Below, one piece after another: positions 7,862 to 21,099 of a stretch of 28,888 bases of DNA (its first letter is position 1; every line of letters begins with the position of its first letter). The DNA lies in contig JABJEE010000129.1 in assembly GCA_018665005.1 (NCBI GenBank), positions 1-28,888 of the forward strand, given 5' to 3'. Made by a program: the position numbers and the translations under genes. Origin of the DNA: Flavobacteriales bacterium (GTDB taxonomy: Bacteria > Bacteroidota > Bacteroidia > Flavobacteriales_D > Crocinitomicaceae). Under the pieces are notes generated by a model. The model searched no databases. It saw only the letters and a list, made by a program, of their open reading frames with translations, and was not told where the DNA came from.

Positions 7862-9156
7862 TTTAAATCAATTATTGCCGTCCATAAAGAAATATGTCCC
7901 TTATCCATACGGGGCCATACGGGCCGAACAACATTATCACGAGCAGCTATATTCAAATAATCTCCGAAAAACACCAAGGGATTTGGCTCAAAGGGTTTTT
8001 CTGAAATGACCTGCTCTTTAAAGCTATTGCCTCCATCCATACTTTGGGCCCAAACGACATCGGTAGGTTTTGAATCTACTCCTTTTCTATAATATACAAA
8101 ATGAATATTCCCATTACTAGGGTCTACCGTGAACCAAGTTAAAAAATGATTGTAATTATCGCTTTGTTTATGAACTGTTGTTGGAATGCTCCAGCTTTTA
8201 CCATTGTCCGATGAACTCGAAAATACCACGGATGTTTGACCCGTTTTCATGTTTTGAATTGTCCAATTCAAGTATAGTTTACCATAGTGAGGAGACGATT
8301 TGTTATGATCACTCAGAAAAACTGGTAAACCATTGCATCTGAAAAAATCATCAACCTCAATATTCCAACCACCTTCATGGTCAAATAAAAATTTCTCCTC
8401 TTTAAGCCAAGTTTCACCTTGATCTTTAGAAACATTTATCATTAAACCTTTAGGACCCGACCAAGCGACATAAATCTCTCCATTTTCCCCAAGTGCTGGC
8501 ATCGCTCCTTCCACTGTATTATCGCCATCCAGGCAATCACCTCCATATCGTGAAATCCGACTTGGAGTCGTCCATGTTTCTCCATCATCCAATGATTTGG
8601 AAAACACAATTATTGAAGAATCCTTTGGGTCAGATGAATCGTATGCATCAAACTGTGTCCACGTCATGTATATTACATCTGTTTCAGGATCAATGACCAT
8701 CCAGTGCTTATCTTGAACCTTTGTTCCATTGGGTCTTGGCGCTGTTCCATTGTTAAACTTTTCATCAAACACCTCCGCTTTTTGACAAACGATACGATCC
8801 AAATGACTCGTCTTGTTATAAGATGCCAAATGAAAATAAAAAAGATTGCCCTTTGAATTGAATTTTAAGACGGGGTCTCCATACACCCCAAAAGAACTTT
8901 TTAATTGTTTCGATGTCCAATTTAAACCACCATCTTTAGAATAATGGTAACCATCTAAAATAGACCCAACGGCTAAGTAATTGTTATTCGTAGGGTGGAT
9001 ATCGATTGAAGGTTCGCAACCACTGTAAGTATAGCCACTATTCGCTAATGGGATACGAACGTTTTGATATTGGCTACATGCGGAAAAACCAATAAATAAA
9101 AAAAACAAATACAGTATTTTAACGAAGCCAGTAATTGAGAAGTTTGGTGTTTTCAT
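7858..9156 (-). CDS. Secreted BNR/Asp-box beta-propeller (sialidase-like) hydrolase
   Basis: Five Asp-boxes: SKDGGLNW, SLDDGETW, SKDQGETW, SSDNGKSW, SMDGGNSF; also EPSI, GDP, DKHW and C-terminal FFGDY. Confidence 0.75.
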   Translation of the reverse strand: MKTPNFSITGFVKILYLFFLFIGFSACSQYQNVRIPLANSGYTYSGCEPSIDIHPTNNNYLAVGSILDGYHYSKDGGLNWTSKQLKSSFGVYGDPVLKFNSKGNLFYFHLASYNKTSHLDRIVCQKAEVFDEKFNNGTAPRPNGTKVQDKHWMVIDPETDVIYMTWTQFDAYDSSDPKDSSIIVFSKSLDDGETWTTPSRISRYGGDCLDGDNTVEGAMPALGENGEIYVAWSGPKGLMINVSKDQGETWLKEEKFLFDHEGGWNIEVDDFFRCNGLPVFLSDHNKSSPHYGKLYLNWTIQNMKTGQTSVVFSSSSDNGKSWSIPTTVHKQSDNYNHFLTWFTVDPSNGNIHFVYYRKGVDSKPTDVVWAQSMDGGNSFKEQVISEKPFEPNPLVFFGDYLNIAARDNVVRPVWPRMDKGHISLWTAIIDLK

Positions 9157-10873
9157 TGTTTATATTCAAATAAAATTTGGGTTTGAATCTATTGGTCATT
9201 GTGAATTCAATAGAATATAAAATTTCGTCACGTGAAATTAATAAATCTATTTCATCTCCCTTGTCAAGGCTTTTCATTACACTTTCAACATCAGCCTTTG
9301 AAACTCTATAACCATTGCATCCAATTATTTCATCATTGACACTGAGACCCGCATCTTCAGCAGCCGAATTTGATCGAATTGATTTGATTATGGTTTTTCC
9401 TCCGGAGTTAGCAAGGCCAGCACCAAAATCAGGATATGTTGAACTCACGTCTTGTACATCAACTCCAACTTGACCGAAAACATCCTCATATGGTGGAATT
9501 TCTGTACCATATATATACTTTGCATAAAAGTCGTCTAAATTATCCCCTACAAATGTCTCCAGTTCTTTTTTAAATTCATCAGAAGTAAACCCTCTATTTT
9601 TCTGCTCATAGAATTTGGAATAAAGACTCTGTAAAAAATCATCAAGACACTTTTTTCCTTTATTGTTTTCAATGATCATTACATCCAAAAGAGCGGCAAT
9701 TATTGACCCTCTAGAATAATAAGACATACTGGTATTTGAACTGTTTTCATTTGGCCTGTATGCTTTAACCCATGCATCGAAGCTAGCATGTGCTAAAGGC
9801 TGTACTCTTGAACCGACAGAACCTTCAACATAATTTATGGCGCTTTCTACTTTTCCCAACATCTGATTTTGAGAATAATATCCAGCTCTTAGCAAGATCA
9901 GCTCATCATAATAGGAAGTAAAACCCTCCATAACCCATAACATATCCGTATAATTCTCTTGATTATAATCAAATGGCCCAAGTTCAATAGGACGAATTCG
10001 TTTTACATTCCAAAGGTGAAAATACTCGTGAGCCACAAGGCTTAAAAACTTGATGTAATTCGATCCACTGTAGGTCCACCTATTGACACTAAGGGTCGTA
10101 GAGTTTTTGTGTTCTAGTCCTCCCTGACCATTAACCACATTATGAATGATAAATAAATACTCCTTATTTGGATTTTGACCGAAAACCTTGGTTTCTTCTT
10201 CGATGATTTTGGCCATGTCTGTACGCAATTCATCAATCAAATAATTGCCGTCGCCATATATGGCAACAGTATGTTTAACCCCTGCAGCATTAAAGTCAAA
10301 AACCTGTTGATTTCCAATTTCAATGGGACAATCTACGAGATGGTCGTAATCTGTATAGGAAAACTCGAATTTTGATTTTGCTTCTGGCAATGCTGTTGAA
10401 ACTGTTGAAAATCCCTCAAAAGGAACTATTTTTAATTGACCACTAGAATCTAAATGGCCTTCAACAAACATGAATACGCCACTTCCACTAACATAACCAT
10501 GCGTTAAATCCAAAAACGAGGTGCGCACTGAAAGTTCAAAAGCATACACTTCATATTTAACAACAACTTTATTGTTTTTTGATGTATTTATAGTCCAACT
10601 GTTCTTTCTTTGCTTTTTAATTTCCAACGGGTTCCCTTTTTCATCGAATGCTTTCACCATATTGATGTTCTTAGAGAATTCTCTAACCAAATATGATCCT
10701 GGAGCCCACACGGGAAGAGAAATATCAATTTCTTTTTCCTTGAAATCTTTTAATTCCATCTCCACATGGAAATAATGATTTTGGGGTTTGGGCATGGTAA
10801 GTTTGTAACTAACAGATTGAGCATGAAGCATACTGCAAGCAAATAATATAAGGAGTGATAGACTGAATTTCAT
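9119..10873 (-). CDS. M61 family metallopeptidase (glycyl aminopeptidase-like) with C-terminal PDZ domain
   Basis: Signal peptide ending A|Q; LPVWAPGSY..REF, GGLEH, HEYFHLWNVKRIRP (HExxH), WVMEGFTSYY, YYSRG; PDZ segment SAAEDAGLSVNDEII. Confidence 0.92.
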   Translation of the reverse strand: MKFSLSLLILFACSMLHAQSVSYKLTMPKPQNHYFHVEMELKDFKEKEIDISLPVWAPGSYLVREFSKNINMVKAFDEKGNPLEIKKQRKNSWTINTSKNNKVVVKYEVYAFELSVRTSFLDLTHGYVSGSGVFMFVEGHLDSSGQLKIVPFEGFSTVSTALPEAKSKFEFSYTDYDHLVDCPIEIGNQQVFDFNAAGVKHTVAIYGDGNYLIDELRTDMAKIIEEETKVFGQNPNKEYLFIIHNVVNGQGGLEHKNSTTLSVNRWTYSGSNYIKFLSLVAHEYFHLWNVKRIRPIELGPFDYNQENYTDMLWVMEGFTSYYDELILLRAGYYSQNQMLGKVESAINYVEGSVGSRVQPLAHASFDAWVKAYRPNENSSNTSMSYYSRGSIIAALLDVMIIENNKGKKCLDDFLQSLYSKFYEQKNRGFTSDEFKKELETFVGDNLDDFYAKYIYGTEIPPYEDVFGQVGVDVQDVSSTYPDFGAGLANSGGKTIIKSIRSNSAAEDAGLSVNDEIIGCNGYRVSKADVESVMKSLDKGDEIDLLISRDEILYSIEFTMTNRFKPKFYLNINNENTKLLNYWLR

Positions 10874-11084
10874 TTTTCGCTAATTGTTTATTGCCCTTTA
10901 TTGAGCTTGTTTCGATCAATCATTAACATCATCTATGCCATTCTTAAATCGCATCGAATTTCTTGACGTATATACGACTATGTAAATATAATCGACTTTA
11001 GGGAAACGAAGAGTCTGTTTATGTGATTTCATGAATTCTTTAAAACATAAAGTAACGGTTAATATATTCTGCGTTTTCAAGAAT

Positions 11085-11663
11085 ATGAAAAAGCTATTAT
11101 TTATGTTCCTTGTGTTGATATCAAGCTGTCATTCTCAGGGAAAGCATCAGGGTCAAATTGAAAAGAAAACAAACATTTCCGTGAATTACGATACCATTCA
11201 ATTTACAAATGGATTTGATTTCCCAGTGGGAGAATTAAATACCAACGGTTACTACAATGCTCAAAAATTTACTGAGAACAATCATTTAGGGGATGATTGG
11301 AATGGAACAGGTGGTGGGAATACGGATTTAGGAGACCCTATTTATGCCATTGCCAACGGGTATGTTTCTTTTTCAGCAAATGTAAATGGCGGTTGGGGAA
11401 ATGTAATCAGAATCATTCATTTTATTGATTCAAATAAACAGGTAGAATCATTATATGCACATTGTGATAAACGCCTCATTGAAGCAGGAGAATTTGTTAA
11501 AAAAGGAACACAGATTGGTACCATAGGAACCAATAATGATCAATATTTGGCACACCTTCACTTTGAGATAAGGAATATTGTGAACCTACCTATTGGTGGC
11601 GGGTATTCTTCAGATACGGAAGGCTATCTTGATCCGACAGAATTTATAAATAGAAATAGATGA
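11085..11663 (+). CDS. M23 family metallopeptidase, possible lipoprotein
   Basis: HLGDD (HxxxD), IYAIANG.V, GWGNVIRI.H, SLYAH, HLHFEIR; signal MKKLLFMFLVLISSC. ATG 11085 preferred. Confidence 0.88.
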   Translation: MKKLLFMFLVLISSCHSQGKHQGQIEKKTNISVNYDTIQFTNGFDFPVGELNTNGYYNAQKFTENNHLGDDWNGTGGGNTDLGDPIYAIANGYVSFSANVNGGWGNVIRIIHFIDSNKQVESLYAHCDKRLIEAGEFVKKGTQIGTIGTNNDQYLAHLHFEIRNIVNLPIGGGYSSDTEGYLDPTEFINRNR

Positions 11664-11684
11664 GTCTAGACTTACAAAAAAGAT

Positions 11685-12659
11685 TCATAAAGATCTGTTC
11701 CTGAAAAAATACGCGAGGCTTAAACCTGAAACGATATGCCATATTCCCCACCATCCAGCAACAATAACCATTCCACCCATCCCATTAAAGAATGAAAAAA
11801 TTAAACCCAATCCCAAACCCGAATTTTGAATTCCAGTTTCAATGGCTAAAGTCTTTTGGTCGTTAAATGGAAGTCTGAAGAGTCTCGCAAGACCAAATCC
11901 CGTAAAAATGCCAAGAGCATTATGCGCAAAAACAACAAATATGACCAGATGAATGTATTTCAAAAACAAATCCATGTTCGCTGCAAAAGCAAATACGACA
12001 ATCAAACCAAAAATAAGCATCGAGCCATAATGGGTGAATTTATGGAATAAGTCAGCGGTTTTAGGTTTATAATATCTCAAGGCCATTCCGAAAACAAGTG
12101 GAATCAACAAAATCATTCCTACAATCTTCAGCATGGAAAAAAAATCAAGGCTTACATCATTTAGAATCACTGCAGTTGGAGGGTACAATCCACCATAAAA
12201 GGAAATGTTTAAAGGTGTCATGAAAACTGCACATACACTTGCAATAGCAGTCATACAAACAGACAAGGCAGTATTCCCATTTGCCAATGAGGTCATGAAA
12301 TTTGAGATATTCCCTCCAGGACAGGCCGCTACAATCATCATCCCCATAGCAACACTGGGCATGGGCTTAAAAATCCACACAATCAAAAAAGTTAAAAAAG
12401 GAAGAGCTATAAATTGAGAGATAAAACCGATAAGAACAGATTTAGGGGCACTGAACACTCTTTTAAAATCATCTATTTTCAGTTGAAGAGCCACTCCAAA
12501 CATGATGAACCCCAAGCTGAGATTCATGATGAAAATGTTTTTATCATCAAATTTAAGATCTGCAGTATCTAGCTCTTTATCTTCCACACATGATGATAAA
12601 AAGAGTAGAACAAAAATGGACAAAAACCATAAAAGACGATTTCTAGTGATTTTTTTCAT
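11685..12659 (-). CDS. Bile acid:sodium symporter (BASS) family transporter
   Basis: MFGVAL, ACPGGNISN, NTALSV, HNALG, ETGIQNSGLG; about 10 hydrophobic segments. Confidence 0.92.
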   Translation of the reverse strand: MKKITRNRLLWFLSIFVLLFLSSCVEDKELDTADLKFDDKNIFIMNLSLGFIMFGVALQLKIDDFKRVFSAPKSVLIGFISQFIALPFLTFLIVWIFKPMPSVAMGMMIVAACPGGNISNFMTSLANGNTALSVCMTAIASVCAVFMTPLNISFYGGLYPPTAVILNDVSLDFFSMLKIVGMILLIPLVFGMALRYYKPKTADLFHKFTHYGSMLIFGLIVVFAFAANMDLFLKYIHLVIFVVFAHNALGIFTGFGLARLFRLPFNDQKTLAIETGIQNSGLGLGLIFSFFNGMGGMVIVAGWWGIWHIVSGLSLAYFFRNRSL

Positions 12660-12807
12660 TAGTAAAACATTTAACAACTAAATACGTTTGGTTACATCTT
12701 ATAAAAATACGATTATAAATGAGCTCAAACTCTATTGAAAGAGGAATTCCTAATATTTTAAAAGACGTATCTTGTAGTGTTTGTTAACCAATTTTATACA
12801 TTCAATA

Positions 12808-13290
12808 ATGAAGCTGTTCTCTTGTTTTTTAGTTGCGATTATCATATTAACCAACTCTTCTACTCAAGCGCAAAATAATACTACAAGGGATTTGAAAAAA
12901 AACATTTTTTCAGGAACCATAGGAGGATCATCATCTATTATAGGAATCAACTATCAACGATTTATAGGAAACAAATTATCAATTGAATTTGGGATAGGTT
13001 TAATCGGAGTCGGTACTGGGCTTACGATTTACCCGAAAGGTTTAACAGAAATGGGTGCACGGTTCTACACAGGCATCAAACTCAATAGTGTCGTGCTGGT
13101 GGATGTAGGAGGAGGAACCGTTACCTACGTTCCGTTTGGGGTTACCTTTTTCTCGGAGAGTCCATTTATTGTCGGGTTTGATATTGGACCTGCATATGGA
13201 AAACTGGTTTCAAGTTCATTTGGTGGAGAAACATCTGAAACCACATACTTTTATGGGTTTGGCAACTTGAAAATTGGTGTTAGATTTTAA
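12808..13290 (+). CDS. Hypothetical small outer-membrane beta-barrel-like protein
   Basis: Signal peptide ending TQA|Q, Gly/aromatic-rich amphipathic strands, C-terminal LKIGVRF ending in Phe. Confidence 0.55.
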   Translation: MKLFSCFLVAIIILTNSSTQAQNNTTRDLKKNIFSGTIGGSSSIIGINYQRFIGNKLSIEFGIGLIGVGTGLTIYPKGLTEMGARFYTGIKLNSVVLVDVGGGTVTYVPFGVTFFSESPFIVGFDIGPAYGKLVSSSFGGETSETTYFYGFGNLKIGVRF

Positions 13291-13393
13291 ACTATACTTC
13301 AGTTTCAATTCATTACAATAAAATTCGACTCGCAAATTACACCCCTAATTAATATTAATAAAATAATGGCTTTTTTTAAAAGACTAAATAGAG

Positions 13394-13401
13394 TACATTT
13401 G
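13394..13401 (+). promoter_or_regulatory. Bacteroidota -7 box (TACATTTG) for the VTC operon
   Basis: Exact TAnnTTTG match, 5 nt before ATG 13407. Confidence 0.5.
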
Positions 13402-13406
13402 GGCTA

Positions 13407-14162
13407 ATGTTATTGTCAGATATTCAAGATATTACAAGTGCTTTTAATGCCGTTTCATTAAGTGAAATGGATACAGTTAAACTCATGAAAAGAGTGGATA
13501 CTAAGTTTGCTATATCCGAAAAAGATTTCAAAAACGTATTTGTGAATTTGAAGGATGAATACAACGTTTTAGAGGTAAATAATGATAAGTATTCTGAATA
13601 TGAAAGCCTTTATTTTGATCAAAGTGACTTGATATTTTATAAAGACCATCACAGGGGGAAAGCCAATAGATTGAAAATTCGAATTCGAAAATACAAAAGC
13701 AATGAGCTTTCTTTTTTAGAAGTCAAAAAAAAACACAAAGGACAAACTATTAAATCAAGAATTCCTTCCAAGTCTTGGAGTGAGGGTTTCACGTCAAAGG
13801 AGCGTGAATTCTTATCCCAACTTTATCCGAACCATTCGAGTTTAATCCCAAGTCTTGAGAATAAATTTATTCGAATAACACTCGTACACAAAGAAAATAT
13901 TGAAAGATTAACCTTTGACTTAAATTTATCTTACAAAAAGGATGGTCAAACCATTGAAATGGAAAATCTTGTCGTTTGTGAACTCAAACAAGAAAAAATC
14001 AATAGGCTAAATTCTTTCTACAACGAAATGAAAAAAAAATTAGTGCGACCTCTTAGGGTTAGTAAGTATTGCCTTGGAATTATGGAATTCCATTCATCAA
14101 AACAAATTAAATCGAATCGTTTTAAAAGGAAAACATTACAATTAAAGAAAATATTATGTTGA
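13407..14162 (+). CDS. VTC-domain (polyphosphate polymerase, CYTH/TTM tunnel fold) protein
   Basis: SLSEMD.VKLMKRVDTKF, Y.SLYFD, KIRIRKY, FLEVKKK, IKSR, ERLTFD, ELK, SKYC. Confidence 0.9.
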   Translation: MLLSDIQDITSAFNAVSLSEMDTVKLMKRVDTKFAISEKDFKNVFVNLKDEYNVLEVNNDKYSEYESLYFDQSDLIFYKDHHRGKANRLKIRIRKYKSNELSFLEVKKKHKGQTIKSRIPSKSWSEGFTSKEREFLSQLYPNHSSLIPSLENKFIRITLVHKENIERLTFDLNLSYKKDGQTIEMENLVVCELKQEKINRLNSFYNEMKKKLVRPLRVSKYCLGIMEFHSSKQIKSNRFKRKTLQLKKILC

Positions 14163-14185
14163 TAAACTTTATTCTAAAAAAGAAA

Positions 14186-14818
14186 ATGGAGGACCCATTA
14201 ACCTTACAATGGTTTGATGAAGATTTTTACCTTCTGTTAATGCGATTGGCCATTAATATGGTCTTTATCACAATTTTGATTCGCTTCCTCTATTATGAAA
14301 AAACAAGACGAAAGGACTACCTTTTCACCTACTACTTAATTGGGACCATTACATTTTTCCTATGCTTTGGATTGAAGAAGCTAGACATTGATACTGGAAT
14401 GGGGCTGGGACTCTTTGCTATTTTTGGAATCATTCGCTATCGGACTGATGCCATAGAAATCAAGGAGATGACCTATCTATTTCTAATCATTGGATTGAGT
14501 GTTGTAAACGCACTCGCATCCAATAAGCTTAGTATTGCTGAAATGGGTCTCATCAATGTGTTTATGGTGATTCTTACCTATATTCTCGAATTTGTTTGGT
14601 TAATGAAGCACGAAACAAGAAAAACCATAACCTACGAAAGAATTGATTTGATCAAACCAGAAAATGCGGCTGAAATGAAGAAAGACCTTGAAGTTAGAAC
14701 AGGACTTTCATTGAATAGATTTGAAATTGGAAAAATTGATTTTTTGAACGATACCGCCCAAGTTCGCGTTTATTATTATGCAGAAGAGCAAGAATTTTCT
14801 GATTACCACGTTCAATAG
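14186..14818 (+). CDS. DUF4956 family membrane protein (MgtC-like N-terminal helices plus small C-terminal domain)
   Basis: GMGLGLFAIFGIIRYRT, KEMTYLF..IG, then YERIDLI...L..RTG. An alternative ATG at 14156 overlaps the VTC stop. Confidence 0.88.
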   Translation: MEDPLTLQWFDEDFYLLLMRLAINMVFITILIRFLYYEKTRRKDYLFTYYLIGTITFFLCFGLKKLDIDTGMGLGLFAIFGIIRYRTDAIEIKEMTYLFLIIGLSVVNALASNKLSIAEMGLINVFMVILTYILEFVWLMKHETRKTITYERIDLIKPENAAEMKKDLEVRTGLSLNRFEIGKIDFLNDTAQVRVYYYAEEQEFSDYHVQ

Positions 14819-14833
14819 GAAAGCAAAAACCGC

Positions 14834-15850
14834 ATGAGATTCCTCTTGCTACCATTTTCCTGGATTTATGCCATAGGTATTTTTATAAGAAATCTACTTT
14901 TCGATATTGGTATTCTCAAATCCAATATAGTGAGGAAAAGTATCGGCATTGGGAATTTGTCCATGGGAGGTACTGGAAAAACACCACTTACTCAATATCT
15001 TGCCCAATGGCTTATTGAAAATGATCAAATCGTTTATATTCTAAGTCGAGGATATAAAAGATCGACCAATCAAAATATTCTTGTAAAAGAATCACACCTC
15101 AGCCATGAAGTTGGTGACGAGCCATTGATGTACAAAAAAAGATTTAAAAACAAGATAAATGTACTGGTATCTAAAAATAGATGGTTAGGCAGTTTAGATG
15201 CTAAAAAGAATAATTCCAATGCATTTTTACTTTTTGACGATATCTATCAGCACCGAAAGGTAGTAACCGATTTTTCAATCATTACAACACCTTACAACGA
15301 TTTATTTGATGATGACACCTTGCTTCCCGCCGGAAGACTAAGAGAACCAAAAAGAAATGTAAACCGCGCATCTTGTATACTCGTTACACGATGCCCTGAG
15401 AATATGAGTCAAGATAAGAGAACGCACATTAAAGACAAATTAAGCAAATACAATAAACCTCTTTTCTATAGCTCCATAAGCTATGAGCCTTTTGAATGTT
15501 TTGGTGAAAAAATAAGAAAAATTAGTAGCGTATTATTGGTGACAGGGATTGCGAAAAATGAAAATTTAATTGCGCATATAGAAAACACTTATGAAACGAC
15601 TACGATTTCTTACCCCGACCATTATCGTTATACCATGGATGACATTAAGGATATCCATCAAAAATTTAATAGCTTTGCAAGTGAACATACGATAATTCTA
15701 ACTACAGAAAAAGATATGGTTAGAATGTTGGAATTCGAGGAATATATCGATGCAAATAAATTACCGATGTATTACCAACCTATTTCAATTGACGTTCATA
15801 ATGAAAAAGAATTTACATCATTAATTAAAGAATATGTTGGAAAAATTTAA
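14834..15850 (+). CDS. lpxK: Tetraacyldisaccharide 4'-kinase
   Basis: GNLSMGGTGKTP, LSRGYKR, VGDEP, DD.YQHR, LLPAGRLREP, YPDHY, LTTEKD. Confidence 0.94.
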   Translation: MRFLLLPFSWIYAIGIFIRNLLFDIGILKSNIVRKSIGIGNLSMGGTGKTPLTQYLAQWLIENDQIVYILSRGYKRSTNQNILVKESHLSHEVGDEPLMYKKRFKNKINVLVSKNRWLGSLDAKKNNSNAFLLFDDIYQHRKVVTDFSIITTPYNDLFDDDTLLPAGRLREPKRNVNRASCILVTRCPENMSQDKRTHIKDKLSKYNKPLFYSSISYEPFECFGEKIRKISSVLLVTGIAKNENLIAHIENTYETTTISYPDHYRYTMDDIKDIHQKFNSFASEHTIILTTEKDMVRMLEFEEYIDANKLPMYYQPISIDVHNEKEFTSLIKEYVGKI

Positions 15851-16646
15851 TGAATCAGCTGATTATATAAGATCTAAAACAAGAATAAATCCATCTGTTG
15901 GAATTATACTAGGAACTGGACTCGGAGGTCTTGTTAACGAAATTAATATTGTTGATGAAATACCCTATGAAGATATTCCTAATTTTCCAGTCTCGACTGT
16001 TAAAGGCCATTCTGGAAAACTGATATTTGGAGAACTCGGAGGAAAAAAAGTAATGGCCATGCAAGGTCGGTTTCACTATTATGAGGGTTACACGCTTCAA
16101 GAGGTTACCTTTCCCGTTCGAGTAATGAAAATAATGGGTATTGAGAATTTATTTGTTAGCAATGCCTCAGGAGGTGTTAATCCGGATTTTGAAATTGGAG
16201 AAATAATGATTCAAAATGACCATATTAACCTTTTTCCTAGCAATCCATTAATAGGTAAGAATATTGATGAATTGGGAACAAGATTCCCTGATATGAGTGA
16301 CGCTTATGACCCAAGACTCATTGAAATAGCCTCAGATATTGCGAAAGAAAATGACATCAAAATATCCTATGGTTGCTATGCAGGACTAACGGGACCAACA
16401 CTTGAAACACCCGCAGAATACAAATATGTTTTTAATATTGGTGCTGACGCTGTGGGTATGTCAACAGTTCCTGAAGTTATTGTAGCGCGCCACATGAACA
16501 TACCCTGTTTTGCAATCTCAATCATCACGGATTTAGGTGTTCCTGGAAAAATTCAAAAAGTAAGTCATCAAGATGTAATAGAGGTGGCTGCAAAACAAGA
16601 GCCAAAAATGACTCTCATTATGAGGGAATTAATTGCACGCATATAA
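15834..16646 (+). CDS. punA: Purine-nucleoside phosphorylase (trimeric type)
   Basis: IILGTGLG, GHSGKL, MQGRFHYYEG, SNASGG, GPTLETPAE, GADAVGMSTVPE. Confidence 0.94.
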   Translation: MLEKFNESADYIRSKTRINPSVGIILGTGLGGLVNEINIVDEIPYEDIPNFPVSTVKGHSGKLIFGELGGKKVMAMQGRFHYYEGYTLQEVTFPVRVMKIMGIENLFVSNASGGVNPDFEIGEIMIQNDHINLFPSNPLIGKNIDELGTRFPDMSDAYDPRLIEIASDIAKENDIKISYGCYAGLTGPTLETPAEYKYVFNIGADAVGMSTVPEVIVARHMNIPCFAISIITDLGVPGKIQKVSHQDVIEVAAKQEPKMTLIMRELIARI

Positions 16647-16647
16647 C

Positions 16648-18105
16648 ATGAACGAAACTGTAAGAGAAAAATATGAGGCTGTTATTGGCCTTGAGGTTCA
16701 TGCTCAACTATTGACCAATTCCAAAGCGTATTCTTCTGATGTAAATGAATATGGTTCGACACCGAATTCAAATATCAGTCCTGTAACACTTGGCCATCCG
16801 GGAACCCTTCCGGTAATGAATAAGAAAACGGTTGAATATGCTATTAAGCTTGGACTTGCAATGAATTGTGAAATTGCCGATTACCAATTCTTTGCTCGTA
16901 AAAATTATTTTTACCCAGATTTACCAAAAGGATATCAAATCACACAGGACAAAACTCCAATTTGCACCAATGGATTTATTGATTTAAAATCTGAAGATGC
17001 TAAAGAAAATCGAATTGGTATTACTCGGATTCACATGGAGGAAGATGCGGGGAAAAGTATTCATGATGTTGACATCTATGATACACTTGTAGATTTAAAT
17101 CGTGCAGGAACTCCTCTTTTAGAAATTGTAACAGAACCCGATTTAAGAAGCTCAGCAGACGCGTATCAATATCTCACAGAGGTTAGAAAGCTGGTGAGGT
17201 ATTTAGAAATCTGTGATGGGAACATGGAAGAAGGATCTATGCGCTGTGATGCGAATATCTCGGTTAGATTAAAGGGAGCCACAAAGCTTGGTACAAAAGT
17301 TGAAGTCAAGAATATGAATTCAATAAGAAATGTTCAAAAAGCCATTGAGTACGAAATTATTCGTCAAATAGAGGTCTTAGAAGCTGGCGGCACTTTAAGT
17401 CAAGAAACACGTGGATTTGATGCTCTAGACAATTCAACCATTGCCATGCGCTCCAAAGAGGCAGCCAATGATTACCGATATTTTCCTGAACCAGACCTAC
17501 AACCATTATTTGTTGACGAAAAACAAATAGCCGAAATCCGTTCGGAAATGCCTGCGTTACCCAAGGAATTGTTTGATAAGTATGTACAAGAATATAAACT
17601 GACACCTTATGACGCGAATAATTTAACCGACAGTAAGGAAATTGCATTATTTTTCGAGGAGATTATCACACACAACAAGAACTATAAATCAGCAGCCAAC
17701 TGGATTATGGGAGATGTCAAATCCTATCTTAATGAACATGGAGTTCAAATTGATGATTTTCCAATTCCTGCATGTAAAATCAGTGAGCTCATTAATCTTA
17801 TTGACGAAGGTAAAGTGTCAAGTACAGCAGCATCTCAAAAAATATTTCCTGAAATGCTTAAATCACAAGAATCTGTGCAAGAAATTGCTGAAAGACTTAA
17901 CATTATTCAAGTTTCAAACGAAGGAGAACTCGCCGGGTTTATTGACGAAGTCATCAGAAGTAATACTTCAGAAGTTGAACGATATAAAAATGGTGAAAAA
18001 CAGCTAGTAGGTTTCTTTATGGGACAGCTAATGAAAGTTTCTAGAGGGAAGGCTGACCCAAAAGTCGCCAATGCTCTTTTGAGAGAAAAGCTAAATGCTA
18101 TTTAA
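16648..18105 (+). CDS. gatB: Asp/Glu-tRNA amidotransferase subunit B
   Basis: VIGLEVHAQL, PGTLP, RKNYFYPDLPKGYQITQ, HMEEDAGK, DLNRAG.PLLEIVTEP, RCDAN, YRYFPEPDL, GFFMGQLMK. Confidence 0.97.
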   Translation: MNETVREKYEAVIGLEVHAQLLTNSKAYSSDVNEYGSTPNSNISPVTLGHPGTLPVMNKKTVEYAIKLGLAMNCEIADYQFFARKNYFYPDLPKGYQITQDKTPICTNGFIDLKSEDAKENRIGITRIHMEEDAGKSIHDVDIYDTLVDLNRAGTPLLEIVTEPDLRSSADAYQYLTEVRKLVRYLEICDGNMEEGSMRCDANISVRLKGATKLGTKVEVKNMNSIRNVQKAIEYEIIRQIEVLEAGGTLSQETRGFDALDNSTIAMRSKEAANDYRYFPEPDLQPLFVDEKQIAEIRSEMPALPKELFDKYVQEYKLTPYDANNLTDSKEIALFFEEIITHNKNYKSAANWIMGDVKSYLNEHGVQIDDFPIPACKISELINLIDEGKVSSTAASQKIFPEMLKSQESVQEIAERLNIIQVSNEGELAGFIDEVIRSNTSEVERYKNGEKQLVGFFMGQLMKVSRGKADPKVANALLREKLNAI

Positions 18106-19195: not shown

Positions 19196-20305
19196 ATGAA
19201 ATGTATAACTGTCTTTTTCATTGTTTTATTTTTGAATGCCAATGCGCAAAAAGCGGAGCTCACTCTTTCCGGATCTATTTTTAATTCTCCAACAGATAGC
19301 TTGTATATCGCACAGCTTTTTAACCAAGGAGAATACAAATATTATGACACCATAATTTTGGATGAAAAGGGGAACTTTAGTACCAGCATCACTCTCCCAA
19401 AACAAGATTATTACATTGCAAAAATTGGCACTTCTGAATTGCATTTGGTCGTGAGAGAAAAAAATGACATCAAAATTTATGGTGATGGACGTAAACTGAA
19501 TGAATTTTGTAATATTTTAGGATCTGAAGAGTCAAATGCCATGAATAAATTTGATAAAACTGTCAAAAAATGGCAAGCCAAAAATGATTCTGCAATGATT
19601 GTCATTTCTAAGGATAAGGAAAAAGAAAAGGAGATTAATGATTATATGGCTAAAGAGTATTACAATTTCCAAAATAAACTTAAATCCTTCGTGGGATCCA
19701 ATCAAAATTCAGCGGCATTAATTATGGCACTTGGATCAGTGAATATGGAACAAGAAACTGATTCGTACGAAGCCATAATAAATCAAATCAATAAATCTTT
19801 CCCCAAAAGTGTTACCGTTAAAGAATATGTCAAGCAATTCGAAGCTTACAAAGAAAAGAAAGAAGAAGATTTGCCTTTAGCAATCGGGAAGGTTGCACCA
19901 GATTTTGAAGAACTAGGAGTAGATCAAAAATCAAAAATAAAACTTTCTGACCTTCGAGGCCAAGTTGTTTTAATCGACTTTTGGGCATCATGGTGTGGTC
20001 CTTGCCGACGTGAAAATCCAAATGTGGTGAAAACGTATGAAAAATATAAAAAAGATGGTTTCACCGTAATGAGTGTTTCTCTGGATAAAGACCTGAAAAA
20101 ATGGAAAGAAGCTATTTCCGCAGATCAGCTTTCTTGGCCTAATCATGTTAGTGATTTAGGAGGTTGGCAAAGCAAAGTATCACGCTTGTATCAAGTAGGT
20201 AGTGTACCCTTCACTATTTTATTAAATAAAAAAGGTGAAATCATTAAAAAGAATCTAAGAGGACCAGCACTCGAAGCTGAATTAGAAAAAATATTTGGTC
20301 ATTGA
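19196..20305 (+). CDS. TlpA-family thiol-disulfide oxidoreductase (DUF4369-like N-terminus)
   Basis: Signal peptide ending ANA|Q; GKVAPDF, DLRGQVVLIDFWASWCGPCRRENP. Confidence 0.9.
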   Translation: MKCITVFFIVLFLNANAQKAELTLSGSIFNSPTDSLYIAQLFNQGEYKYYDTIILDEKGNFSTSITLPKQDYYIAKIGTSELHLVVREKNDIKIYGDGRKLNEFCNILGSEESNAMNKFDKTVKKWQAKNDSAMIVISKDKEKEKEINDYMAKEYYNFQNKLKSFVGSNQNSAALIMALGSVNMEQETDSYEAIINQINKSFPKSVTVKEYVKQFEAYKEKKEEDLPLAIGKVAPDFEELGVDQKSKIKLSDLRGQVVLIDFWASWCGPCRRENPNVVKTYEKYKKDGFTVMSVSLDKDLKKWKEAISADQLSWPNHVSDLGGWQSKVSRLYQVGSVPFTILLNKKGEIIKKNLRGPALEAELEKIFGH

Positions 20306-21099
20306 AACTAATTGAACTAAATAGCAATAAAAAAGTCTATTTCGCCTCTGACTTTCATTTGGGAGCACCCAATCACGATGAGAGCAGAAAGAGAGAAAGA
20401 AAAATTATTGATTGGTTAAACTATATTCAAAAAGATGCAGAGGTTTTGTTTCTTGTGGGAGATATTTTTGATTTCTGGTATGAATATAGAAAAGTAGTTC
20501 CAAAAGGATTTGTTAGAATACAAGCCAAAATAGCCGATATGGTTGATGCTGGGATCAAGGTTTATTTTTTTCTTGGCAATCACGATATGTGGATGAAAAA
20601 GTATTTCACAGAAGAACTCGGTGTAATTATGATTGAAAATGAGCTTGAAATAAAGATCAACGACAAGTCTTTTTACATTTCTCATGGAGATGGTCTTGGT
20701 CCAGGAGATTATGGATACAAGTTCATTAAAAAGGTATTTAGAAATAAAATATGCCAGTTCTTATTTTCAATGGTTCATCCGTCTTTATCATTATCAGTTG
20801 CTAATTATTTCTCAAAAAGAAGCCGCTCATATACCGGTAAAAATGACGAAACCTTTACCAAAAAGGAAAATGAATGGCTCTATCAATTTTGCACAGAAAA
20901 ATTAAAGATTAAGCACCATGATTATTTTATTTTTGGGCATCGCCATCTTCCCATGGAAATATCAATTGATAAATCCCAATATATAAACCTGGGTGAATGG
21001 ATGAATTTTCAGTCTTTTGCTTCTTTTGACGGTGTGAAAACAGGGTTGTCAGTGTGGAACAATGAAAGTGTTGACGATTTTAACGGCATTAAATTATAA
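20302..21099 (+). CDS. lpxH: UDP-2,3-diacylglucosamine diphosphatase (metallophosphoesterase)
   Basis: SDFHLG, GDIFDFW, GNHD, HGDG, FGHRH, NLGEW; TTG start overlaps the upstream TGA. Confidence 0.88.
   Translation: MKLIELNSNKKVYFASDFHLGAPNHDESRKRERKIIDWLNYIQKDAEVLFLVGDIFDFWYEYRKVVPKGFVRIQAKIADMVDAGIKVYFFLGNHDMWMKKYFTEELGVIMIENELEIKINDKSFYISHGDGLGPGDYGYKFIKKVFRNKICQFLFSMVHPSLSLSVANYFSKRSRSYTGKNDETFTKKENEWLYQFCTEKLKIKHHDYFIFGHRHLPMEISIDKSQYINLGEWMNFQSFASFDGVKTGLSVWNNESVDDFNGIKL

Follow-up and report, generated by a model that had tools for sequence, protein, structure and literature searches.

The closest described relative of the system studied here is the yeast VTC complex (Vtc4/Vtc3 or Vtc2/Vtc1, Vtc5; 3G3Q, 3G3R, 7YTJ, 8I6V, 9UMG), and in the available text of recent reviews on polyphosphate (polyP), VTC is still assigned to eukaryotes and PPK to prokaryotes (PMC12526157, PMC10657179). 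Here we analyze a bacterial VTC domain gene and the gene of a DUF4956 membrane protein directly behind it, in a stretch of 28,888 nucleotides (nt) from a Flavobacteriales genome of the Crocinitomicaceae (assembly GCA_018665005.1, contig JABJEE010000129.1, positions 1 to 28,888; this whole stretch is called the window below). The pair shares with the yeast complex the PF09359 tunnel domain, and in both cases a membrane protein with conserved basic residues accompanies the enzyme. Unlike in yeast, the window protein has neither an SPX domain nor a fused transmembrane domain, its partner is DUF4956 instead of the three-helix domain DUF202/PF02656 (found in neither window protein), the active-site residue Y359 is a phenylalanine, and the membrane to be crossed would be the bacterial inner membrane. 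PF02656 has no match in the window's genome either, where an assembly completeness of 84.6% leaves its absence from the organism unproven. Compared with the known VTC kind, the pair thus keeps the catalytic module but has another membrane module and lacks SPX control, and both families have been annotated before.

The two families also lie side by side, linked to a secreted CotH-like kinase, in Gram-positive pel loci and in NELoc-2 of C. perfringens. In the available parts of the pel-locus papers, cotH, a polyphosphate-polymerase gene and DUF4956 are accessory genes (10.1101/768473; 10.1101/2024.04.20.589940), and a Vtc4-like fold with the catalytic residues is predicted for the streptococcal protein; in NELoc-2, VTC-domain genes are next to cotH (PMC2879425). 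As far as the accessible text of these three sources goes, the Gram-positive cases rest on annotation and structure prediction, with no assay. Our locus differs from them in its double-membraned Bacteroidota host and in having CotH on other contigs, not in the locus, while the outer-membrane DUF2490 partner discussed below has no Gram-positive counterpart. PPK1 and PPK2, whose product is the one proposed for VTC, are unrelated in fold and family, and PPK1 is present regardless of VTC. Neither PPK1 nor PPK2 is known to couple to a membrane partner.

The VTC protein and its active site

Our analysis shows that the first gene of the pair encodes a protein of 251 amino acids (aa) with the VTC domain (PF09359) as its sole domain above the Pfam cut-off (E 1.4e-23, 84.1 bits against a cut-off of 23; residues 29-227 correspond to profile positions 2-233 of 235). 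The second gene matches DUF4956 (PF16316) over the full length of the profile, 1-169 of 169, with E 6.7e-55 and 185.8 bits against a cut-off of 30.6. This is in accordance with the first-pass annotation, which had read a stand-alone VTC protein followed by a multi-spanning DUF4956 protein from the sequence: both open reading frames (ORFs) lie where it had placed them (Table 1), with Pfam matches far beyond chance, and they overlap by 7 nt (ATGTTGA). NCBIfam has no model matching VTC, DUF4956 or the upstream ORF at 12781-13290. The nearest named relatives of the window are metagenome genomes of Crocinitomicaceae and Flavobacteriales.

Three alignments are used below. A1 contains 35 of 121 sequences, that is, the window VTC protein and 34 of its 120 listed relatives, with 44-80% identity, and A3 contains 32 sequences, 18-75% identical to the window protein, which adds VTC proteins from other Bacteroidota classes. 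For DUF4956, A2 contains 25 sequences, consisting of the window protein, 23 of 77 neighbours from related loci and one distant member, down to 21% identity.

The AlphaFold2 model of the VTC protein, built on A1, has a pLDDT of 90.3 and a pTM of 0.88. When it is compared with the PDB by Foldseek, the 12 best listed rows are all tunnel domains of Vtc4, Vtc3 or Vtc2, with 3g3r_B as the best (E 1.9e-11, TMq 0.64). The next rows are E. coli YgiF (E 2.3e-08) and CYTH cyclases. Other triphosphate-tunnel (TTM) proteins, such as the YgiF tripolyphosphatase (5A60), the CYTH class IV adenylate cyclases and the archaeal TTMs, share the eight-stranded tunnel and its basic lining, but they match the model less well than Vtc4 does (E 2.3e-08 or weaker, TMq at most 0.51), and they are not paired with DUF4956. 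At the sequence level, the A3 profile finds Vtc4 (3g3q) among PDB sequences with E 1.4e-24 over about the whole domain, Vtc2 with 1.8e-14 and Vtc3 with 1e-11; the narrow A1 profile reaches Vtc2 and Vtc4 only marginally (E 0.003-0.03), and the single VTC sequence gives chance matches only. Both the predicted fold and the A3 profile therefore agree with the Vtc4-like enzyme that had been proposed at first sight.

In a cryo-EM preprint on yeast VTC (10.1101/2023.01.27.525886), residues K200, R264, R266, K281, R361, K458, S457 and Y359 of Vtc4 are described as binding triphosphate and E426 as binding Mn2+. Cellular polyP falls in yeast when any one of the eight triphosphate contacts is mutated, K200A and Y359F being among the mutants, and K458 is the one residue that is Ile or Leu in the inactive Vtc2 and Vtc3. 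We mapped these nine positions through the alignment of the A3 profile to Vtc4 and the A3 columns. Eight of the nine are identical in the window protein, the equivalent of K458 included, and these eight are invariant or nearly so in the family (A1, A3); K33, for example, is aligned to K200 of Vtc4 chain 8i6v_E, where position 195 begins VRQTTK. The sole deviation is F154 at the position of Y359, a conservative change which is found in the window protein and most of its subfamily, while a tyrosine stands there in most of the other Bacteroidota VTC proteins of A3. All seven motifs quoted in the first-pass annotation are present in the translation at the expected codons. By its predicted fold and its aligned residues, the VTC protein stands close to the yeast polymerase Vtc4 in both structure and active site. 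Its basic C-terminal helix may have a role in membrane or partner contact; N237, F239 and K240 in this tail are invariant within the Flavobacteriales subfamily (A1), and the tail is not conserved in the wider A3.

It may be asked whether the protein is a polymerase at all, as a tripolyphosphatase, a nucleoside triphosphate phosphohydrolase or a (pyro)phosphate transferase could power or feed a DUF4956 transporter with some other cargo for CotH. Many reactions are carried out by TTM enzymes that have this tunnel and these basic residues, as described in PMC4641920, and after the Vtc proteins our model comes nearest in structure to YgiF and the CYTH cyclases. Moreover, F154 replaces a tyrosine whose phenylalanine mutant is defective in yeast, and the cargo of DUF4956 need not be the product of VTC, since DUF4956 is found without VTC in many genomes (see below). 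Against this, both the sequence and the predicted fold are clearly nearer to Vtc4 than to any hydrolase TTM, the lysine by which the active Vtc4 differs from Vtc2 and Vtc3 is present throughout A3, and the tyrosine is kept by most VTC proteins of the wider family. On the whole we find such a non-polymerase function unlikely.

A longer relative is seen in genome G223 (locus L107, 3500-5836), where an open frame of 778 aa has its VTC domain at 518-743 behind about 500 residues without a Pfam family; the start of this frame is that of the longest ORF, so the N-terminal extension may not be real.

Conservation of the pair and features of DUF4956

The pair is conserved far beyond the window, and its cultured carriers include Crocinitomix catalasitica (L024) and a Polaribacter (L063). 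A scan of one genome per species gives 488 stretches encoding relatives, of which the best 80 were kept, all of Flavobacteriales type. In 77 of these 80 loci, VTC is directly followed by DUF4956 in the same orientation, with gaps from -23 to +12 nt, the commonest being -11 (35 loci), and in the other three the stretch stops 105-482 nt past VTC at a contig end. We then have a Bacteroidota sample of 401 genomes, including 400 that are at least 90% complete and the window's own; because kin are not independent, counts across these genomes describe a pattern and are not a test of it. VTC is matched in 62 of the 401 genomes, DUF4956 in 115, CotH in 156 and PPK1 in 345. DUF4956 is present in all 62 VTC-positive genomes. 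Of their 68 VTC matches, 65 have a same-strand DUF4956 no more than 1 kb away, two more have one within 3 kb, and the last is a fragment of 54 positions. Among 14 control genomes, VTC and DUF4956 match in the same three, a Bacteroides, a Corynebacterium and a Methanosarcina, and CotH matches in these three and in Bacillus subtilis. A lack of co-conservation had been named beforehand as grounds for giving up the pair; the 77 of 80 loci and 62 of 62 genomes show the opposite. Overall, VTC and DUF4956 form a real, conserved unit, in which the partner is obligatory for VTC but not conversely. A 1:1 complex prediction from A1 and A2, made without controls, scores 0.00 against a mark of 0.32, which is uninformative either way.

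DUF4956 is the more conserved member. The median identity to the window is 69.3% for DUF4956 versus 43.3% for VTC, with DUF4956 higher in 76 of 77 pairs, and these identities suggest that it is under tighter constraint than VTC. Within DUF4956, the median is 73.8% for the transmembrane part and 68.3% for the C-terminal part. The most conserved stretch in A2 (Table 1) is accompanied by conserved polar residues in or beside the helices, namely R43, E104, N118, E129, N134 and E145. In databases, many relatives are 210 aa long and begin at the residue equivalent to M11.

The model of DUF4956 (pLDDT 74.9) has five long helices, 22-46, 54-75, 80-96, 102-120 and 127-149, followed by a small soluble domain. 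Positively charged loops follow helix 1 (EKTRRKD) and helix 5 (KHETRK), and by the positive-inside rule the protein would therefore have its N-terminus outside and its C-terminus inside, with the arginine motif RYRT and the soluble domain in the cytoplasm. The soluble domain is possibly ACT-like: weak Foldseek rows lead to ACT-containing proteins (5uyy_A, E 0.039; 9s4v_A; 3ab4_N), and the accessible part of a preprint on the S. intermedius homologue labels its C-terminal domain ACT. No Pfam family besides DUF4956 is found for the 25 members of the membrane protein family. A likeness to MgtC/SapB (PF02308), considered because of the five helices and the small C-terminal domain, is seen in 1 of the 25 with E 0.11, far below the cut-off, and was dropped.

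Table 1. Positions of the pair, of its residues and motifs, and of neighbouring features in the window.
Feature	Position	Strand	Basis or remark
Stand-alone VTC/TTM domain protein, 251 aa, candidate Vtc4-type polyphosphate polymerase	13407..14162	+	PF09359, model, profile
K33 (Vtc4 K200)	13503..13505	+	strand 1, RVDTKF; invariant in A1 and A3
R92-I93-R94 (Vtc4 R264, R266)	13680..13688	+	invariant in A1 and A3; aligned with HRLRWY of Vtc4
K107 (Vtc4 K281)			A3-profile alignment
F154-I155-R156 (R156 = Vtc4 R361; F154 at Y359)	13866..13874	+	aligned with YNR of Vtc4
E192-L193-K194 (E192 = Mn-binding E426)	13980..13988	+	invariant in A1, nearly in A3; aligned with LEVK
S219-K220-Y221 (S219 = S457, K220 = K458)	14061..14069	+	K220 and Y221 invariant in A3; aligned with FSKF
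Basic C-terminal helix of VTC, residues 229-251	14091..14159	+	8 K+R, 0 D+E; model helix 236-250
Motif RVDTKF	13491-13508	+	translation
Motif SLYFD	13605-13619	+	translation
Motif KIRIRKY	13674-13694	+	translation
Motif LEVKKK	13716-13733	+	translation
Motif RLTFD	13905-13919	+	translation
Motif ELK	13980-13988	+	translation
Motif SKY	14061-14069	+	translation
DUF4956 inner-membrane protein, 220 aa	14156..14818	+	PF16316; alternative start M11 at 14186
Most conserved DUF4956 stretch GMGLGLFAIFGIIRYRT	14396..14446	+	A2; invariant G85, L86, R94, R96, T97
Soluble beta-alpha-beta-beta domain of DUF4956, residues 153-208, possibly ACT-like	14612..14779	+	model
Spacer upstream of VTC, 116 nt	13291..13406	+	possible promoter region, weak
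LpxK	14834-15850	+	downstream of DUF4956
Nucleoside phosphorylase	15834-16646	+	downstream run
GatB	16633-18105	+	downstream run
Two thioredoxin-like proteins			in the downstream co-directional run

CotH, PPK and a possible route for polyphosphate

Among the 401 genomes, CotH is found in all 62 with VTC, in 110 of the 115 with DUF4956, and in 46 of the 286 lacking DUF4956. By co-occurrence, VTC is nested in DUF4956 and DUF4956 is nested in CotH. The window is contig C18 of an assembly of 2.22 Mb in 305 contigs, and this contig has no CotH match; six CotH matches are present on other contigs of the genome, all beginning with signal-like hydrophobic segments, two of them with type-IX sorting domains and two with lamin-tail domains. 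Two DUF2490 outer-membrane barrels are also matched on other contigs, and the one beside a CotH gene on C226 is very basic (K+R 36, D+E 16, pI 9.9). The first-pass annotation had noted the absence of CotH partners, which is true for the contig but not for the genome, and its suggestion of a minimal two-gene version free of CotH fails, because the six exported CotH proteins and two DUF2490 barrels are encoded elsewhere. In other Flavobacteriales the genes can be adjacent: DUF2490 is right beside the pair in 10 of the 80 loci, with CotH following in 6 of the 80. In 40 further stretches from other classes, CotH proteins adjoin the pair, several of them with lamin-tail domains and type-IX sorting tails. 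The locus is therefore the inner-membrane half of a VTC-DUF4956-DUF2490-CotH set, which is dispersed here and contiguous in other Flavobacteriales.

As to the barrel on C226, it adjoins and diverges from the gene of a CotH protein of 1041 aa that has lamin-tail, TSP3-repeat and type-IX sorting domains, and the two together lie at about 8270-12426 (L006, L130).

Export-related genes are also found near the pair. HlyD-type adaptors and OEP ducts occur in L126, L095 and L102, and a Porin_O_P-like gene once (L102, E 1.1e-4). DUF4956 genes without VTC are either followed by an HlyD-like gene and a 412-aa gene of no family, or sit with DUF2490 and CotH. In a B. thetaiotaomicron transcriptome table, BT3498-3499 are listed as a DUF4956-DUF2490 pair. 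In L116 (5671-7901), L121 (2513-4806) and L122-L124, all without VTC, two genes come after DUF4956, the first of about 331-343 aa and weakly HlyD-like, the second being the gene of about 412 aa, and this set looks like an export set with DUF4956 as its inner-membrane part. In many Bacteroidota other than Flavobacteriales, a gene of about 345-373 aa without a Pfam family lies directly upstream of VTC on the same strand (L099, 3929-4999; L103, 9540-10613; L089, 3950-4996; and others), and in these genomes the module may include it as an additional conserved component; the window locus, the only part of this genome searched for it, has no such gene.

Then we consider the relation to the PPK enzymes. 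The window's assembly gives no PPK1 or PPK2 match, and at 84.6% completeness we set this negative aside. A complete genome of the same genus (G098) has PPK1 and the incomplete assembly itself has two PPX matches, so that PPK1 of this organism is probably just unassembled. PPK1 is present in 55 of the 62 genomes with VTC and in 290 of the 339 without it, that is, VTC neither replaces PPK1 nor depends on it. The machine had been called PPK-independent, and a check of its co-occurrence with ppk1 had been suggested; VTC is indeed a separate enzyme, but its presence does not track the absence of PPK1, and no replacement pattern is seen. Two complete genomes of 2.0-2.3 Mb, G074 and G118, belonging to one genus of another family, have VTC, DUF4956 and CotH, and no match to PPK1, PPK2 or PPX is found in either.

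Among the readings considered here, we tentatively favour a Vtc4-type polymerase docked at the membrane, with its product going to the envelope and with a link to the secreted CotH kinases; as a whole, this chain is a little less likely than not to hold. The computed part consists of the gene overlap, the family membership, the Vtc4-like predicted fold, the eight of nine catalytic residues, the co-conservation of VTC with DUF4956 and the nested co-occurrence of CotH; polymerase activity, physical docking, translocation and the use of the product by CotH are what we infer from it. The VTC and DUF4956 genes would be a translationally coupled unit. The cytoplasmic VTC protein, as a Vtc4-type tunnel enzyme, would most likely polymerize the gamma-phosphate of ATP into polyP, acting at the inner membrane with DUF4956 as its obligatory partner. 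The nascent polyanion would most likely be received by the arginine motif of DUF4956 facing the cytoplasm and passed to the periplasmic side; its further handling or use would fall to proteins with genes elsewhere in the genome, the basic DUF2490 outer-membrane barrels and the CotH kinases secreted by the type IX route. More specifically, polyP threaded through DUF4956 and the basic DUF2490 barrel might serve as phosphoryl donor, or scaffold, for the type-IX-secreted CotH kinases; we think such a supply line improbable, but if true, it would explain how these kinases work without ATP outside the cell, and would be a third, export-coupled bacterial route to polyP. A bacterial Vtc4-type polymerase with a membrane partner and exported kinases would by itself be a new polyP route, and could explain how the phosphate chemistry of the envelope is powered. 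What the present instance adds is that the module can be dispersed over a genome, and that the small complete genomes G074 and G118 are natural test cases.

A number of observations weigh against the proposed chain. For the enzyme, there is the phenylalanine in place of Y359, whose Y359F mutant is defective. For the organism, it probably does not depend on VTC for polyP, because the complete genome of the same genus has PPK1. For the locus, the window has no outer-membrane or CotH partner, and the gene run, with no terminator, continues into lpxK, the nucleoside phosphorylase gene and gatB. For the membrane partner, 53 of the 115 DUF4956-positive genomes lack VTC. A DUF4956 tree was built from 55 rows, namely the window, 26 first-set loci out of 77, and those 28 second-set ORFs which our own profile caught; several Pfam-positive genes that it missed, such as those in L089, L090 and L092, are not included. 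The 14 rows without VTC are spread over this tree, and branches with good support require at least 5 changes. DUF4956 is therefore not a dedicated VTC channel. No VTC-DUF4956 fusion is found by a search for longer VTC relatives, which is a weak one, nor among the 150 best DUF4956 representatives, nor as a shared long frame in the 401 genomes. Finally, in the literature outside subscription journals we found no assay of a bacterial VTC protein and no experiment on the pair, and among the papers naming DUF4956 no study tests it; the pair had already been called uncharacterized, and our survey bears this out.

Beside the fusion search, four long proteins among the 150 best DUF4956 representatives are joined in frame to other families, one to CotH and three to DUF2490 (P0266, P0284, P0318, P0345), and none to VTC. 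As a signal-peptide-like or lipobox segment is retained at every join, these proteins may result from gene calls that read through, or else they may be natural fusions in which this segment would form an extra membrane helix.

Structure comparison of DUF4956 gives no support to a channel either. Foldseek finds no solved fold at E <= 0.001, and the best hits of the VIA-wide comparison are helical viral coat proteins with Z 8.6, below what is meaningful for helix bundles. Helices of RND/NPC1 type reach a VIA Z of 6-7, which is within the stated helix-bundle background, and the Atlas search gives no usable match. There is no detectable likeness to the Vtc1-type channel of yeast, and no VTC chain is present in the Foldseek rows or the 50 best VIA rows of the model, whose pLDDT is 74.9. 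As no yeast VTC transmembrane chain is among the structural matches, DUF4956 would be at best analogous, not homologous, to the yeast channel. The channel role which the first-pass annotation had assigned to it is thus conjectural, with no likeness detected to a Vtc1-type channel or any solved fold and with DUF4956 also occurring without VTC.

Another explanation, which we regard as rather unlikely, is that polyP is made on the cytoplasmic face only and is not exported, with DUF4956 as an anchor or regulator whose ACT-like domain senses a small molecule, and with a regulatory or indirect link to CotH. The catalytic evidence serves this explanation equally well, no pore-like fold is recognized for DUF4956, its soluble C-terminal domain with weak ACT-like matches would be cytoplasmic by the positive-inside rule, and the authors of the S. 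intermedius preprint, in the part available, suggest that the polyP of their homologue may remain cytoplasmic. However, DUF4956 is the more conserved partner, and its membrane core with the invariant arginines, not the soluble domain, is the most conserved part. Besides, DUF4956 recurs beside HlyD and OEP export parts, outer-membrane barrels and exported CotH, and G074 and G118 keep the module where PPK1, PPK2 and PPX have no match. PPK-free extracellular polyP is described in Bacillus cereus by a 2026 preprint, according to which its source is unknown and the species lacks a VTC4 homologue (PMC13484657).

Gene neighbourhood of the pair

The VTC-DUF4956 pair heads a long co-directional run, in which genes are separated by gaps of at most 15 nt or overlap. 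The order VTC, DUF4956, LpxK, nucleoside phosphorylase, GatB and thioredoxin-like proteins is found in the window, and LpxK, phosphorylase and GatB follow the pair in 36 of the 80 loci. This order could mean that the pair modifies lipid A or another envelope lipid, for example by adding phosphate or pyrophosphate to lipid A precursors. Such order is however kept only in close relatives, with records named Crocinitomicaceae or Flavobacteriales, while the remaining loci have unrelated genes or DUF2490, CotH, HlyD and OEP as neighbours, and the co-occurrence signal favours CotH, not lipid A genes. We therefore consider a lipid A function very improbable.

The 116-nt spacer before VTC is the sole sizeable gap of the run. 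A sigma-70 scan gives 17 promoter-like sites against a shuffle mean of 22.8, fewer than in the shuffled sequences, and is uninformative for Bacteroidota; with the same caveat, the terminator scan finds none between the genes of the run. The sequence TAcaTTTG at 13396-13403 resembles the Bacteroidota -7 motif. In marine metatranscriptomes, short contigs at least 99% alike lie on both the VTC and the DUF4956 genes, which by themselves do not demonstrate transcription. The contigs of X3, X4 and X1 begin at 13424-13429, a weak hint only, and X1 and X2 look like one data set; no metatranscriptome contig covers 13300-13423 or lpxK, and none bridges 14103-14167.

Upstream of the spacer, the ORF at 12781-13290 (+) encodes 169 aa with pI 9.3, a signal-like N-terminus, glycine-rich repeats resembling beta-strands and a C-terminal Phe, and looks like a small outer-membrane barrel, with no Pfam family at E <= 10. 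We had considered it as the outer-membrane partner of the pair. This reading was dropped, because the ORF is conserved in no relative but the closest one, L009, and does not resemble the barrel that precedes VTC in L102. Further downstream, the co-directional run that includes lpxK also encodes a calcineurin-like phosphoesterase at 20302-21099 (+; Metallophos, E 5e-09).

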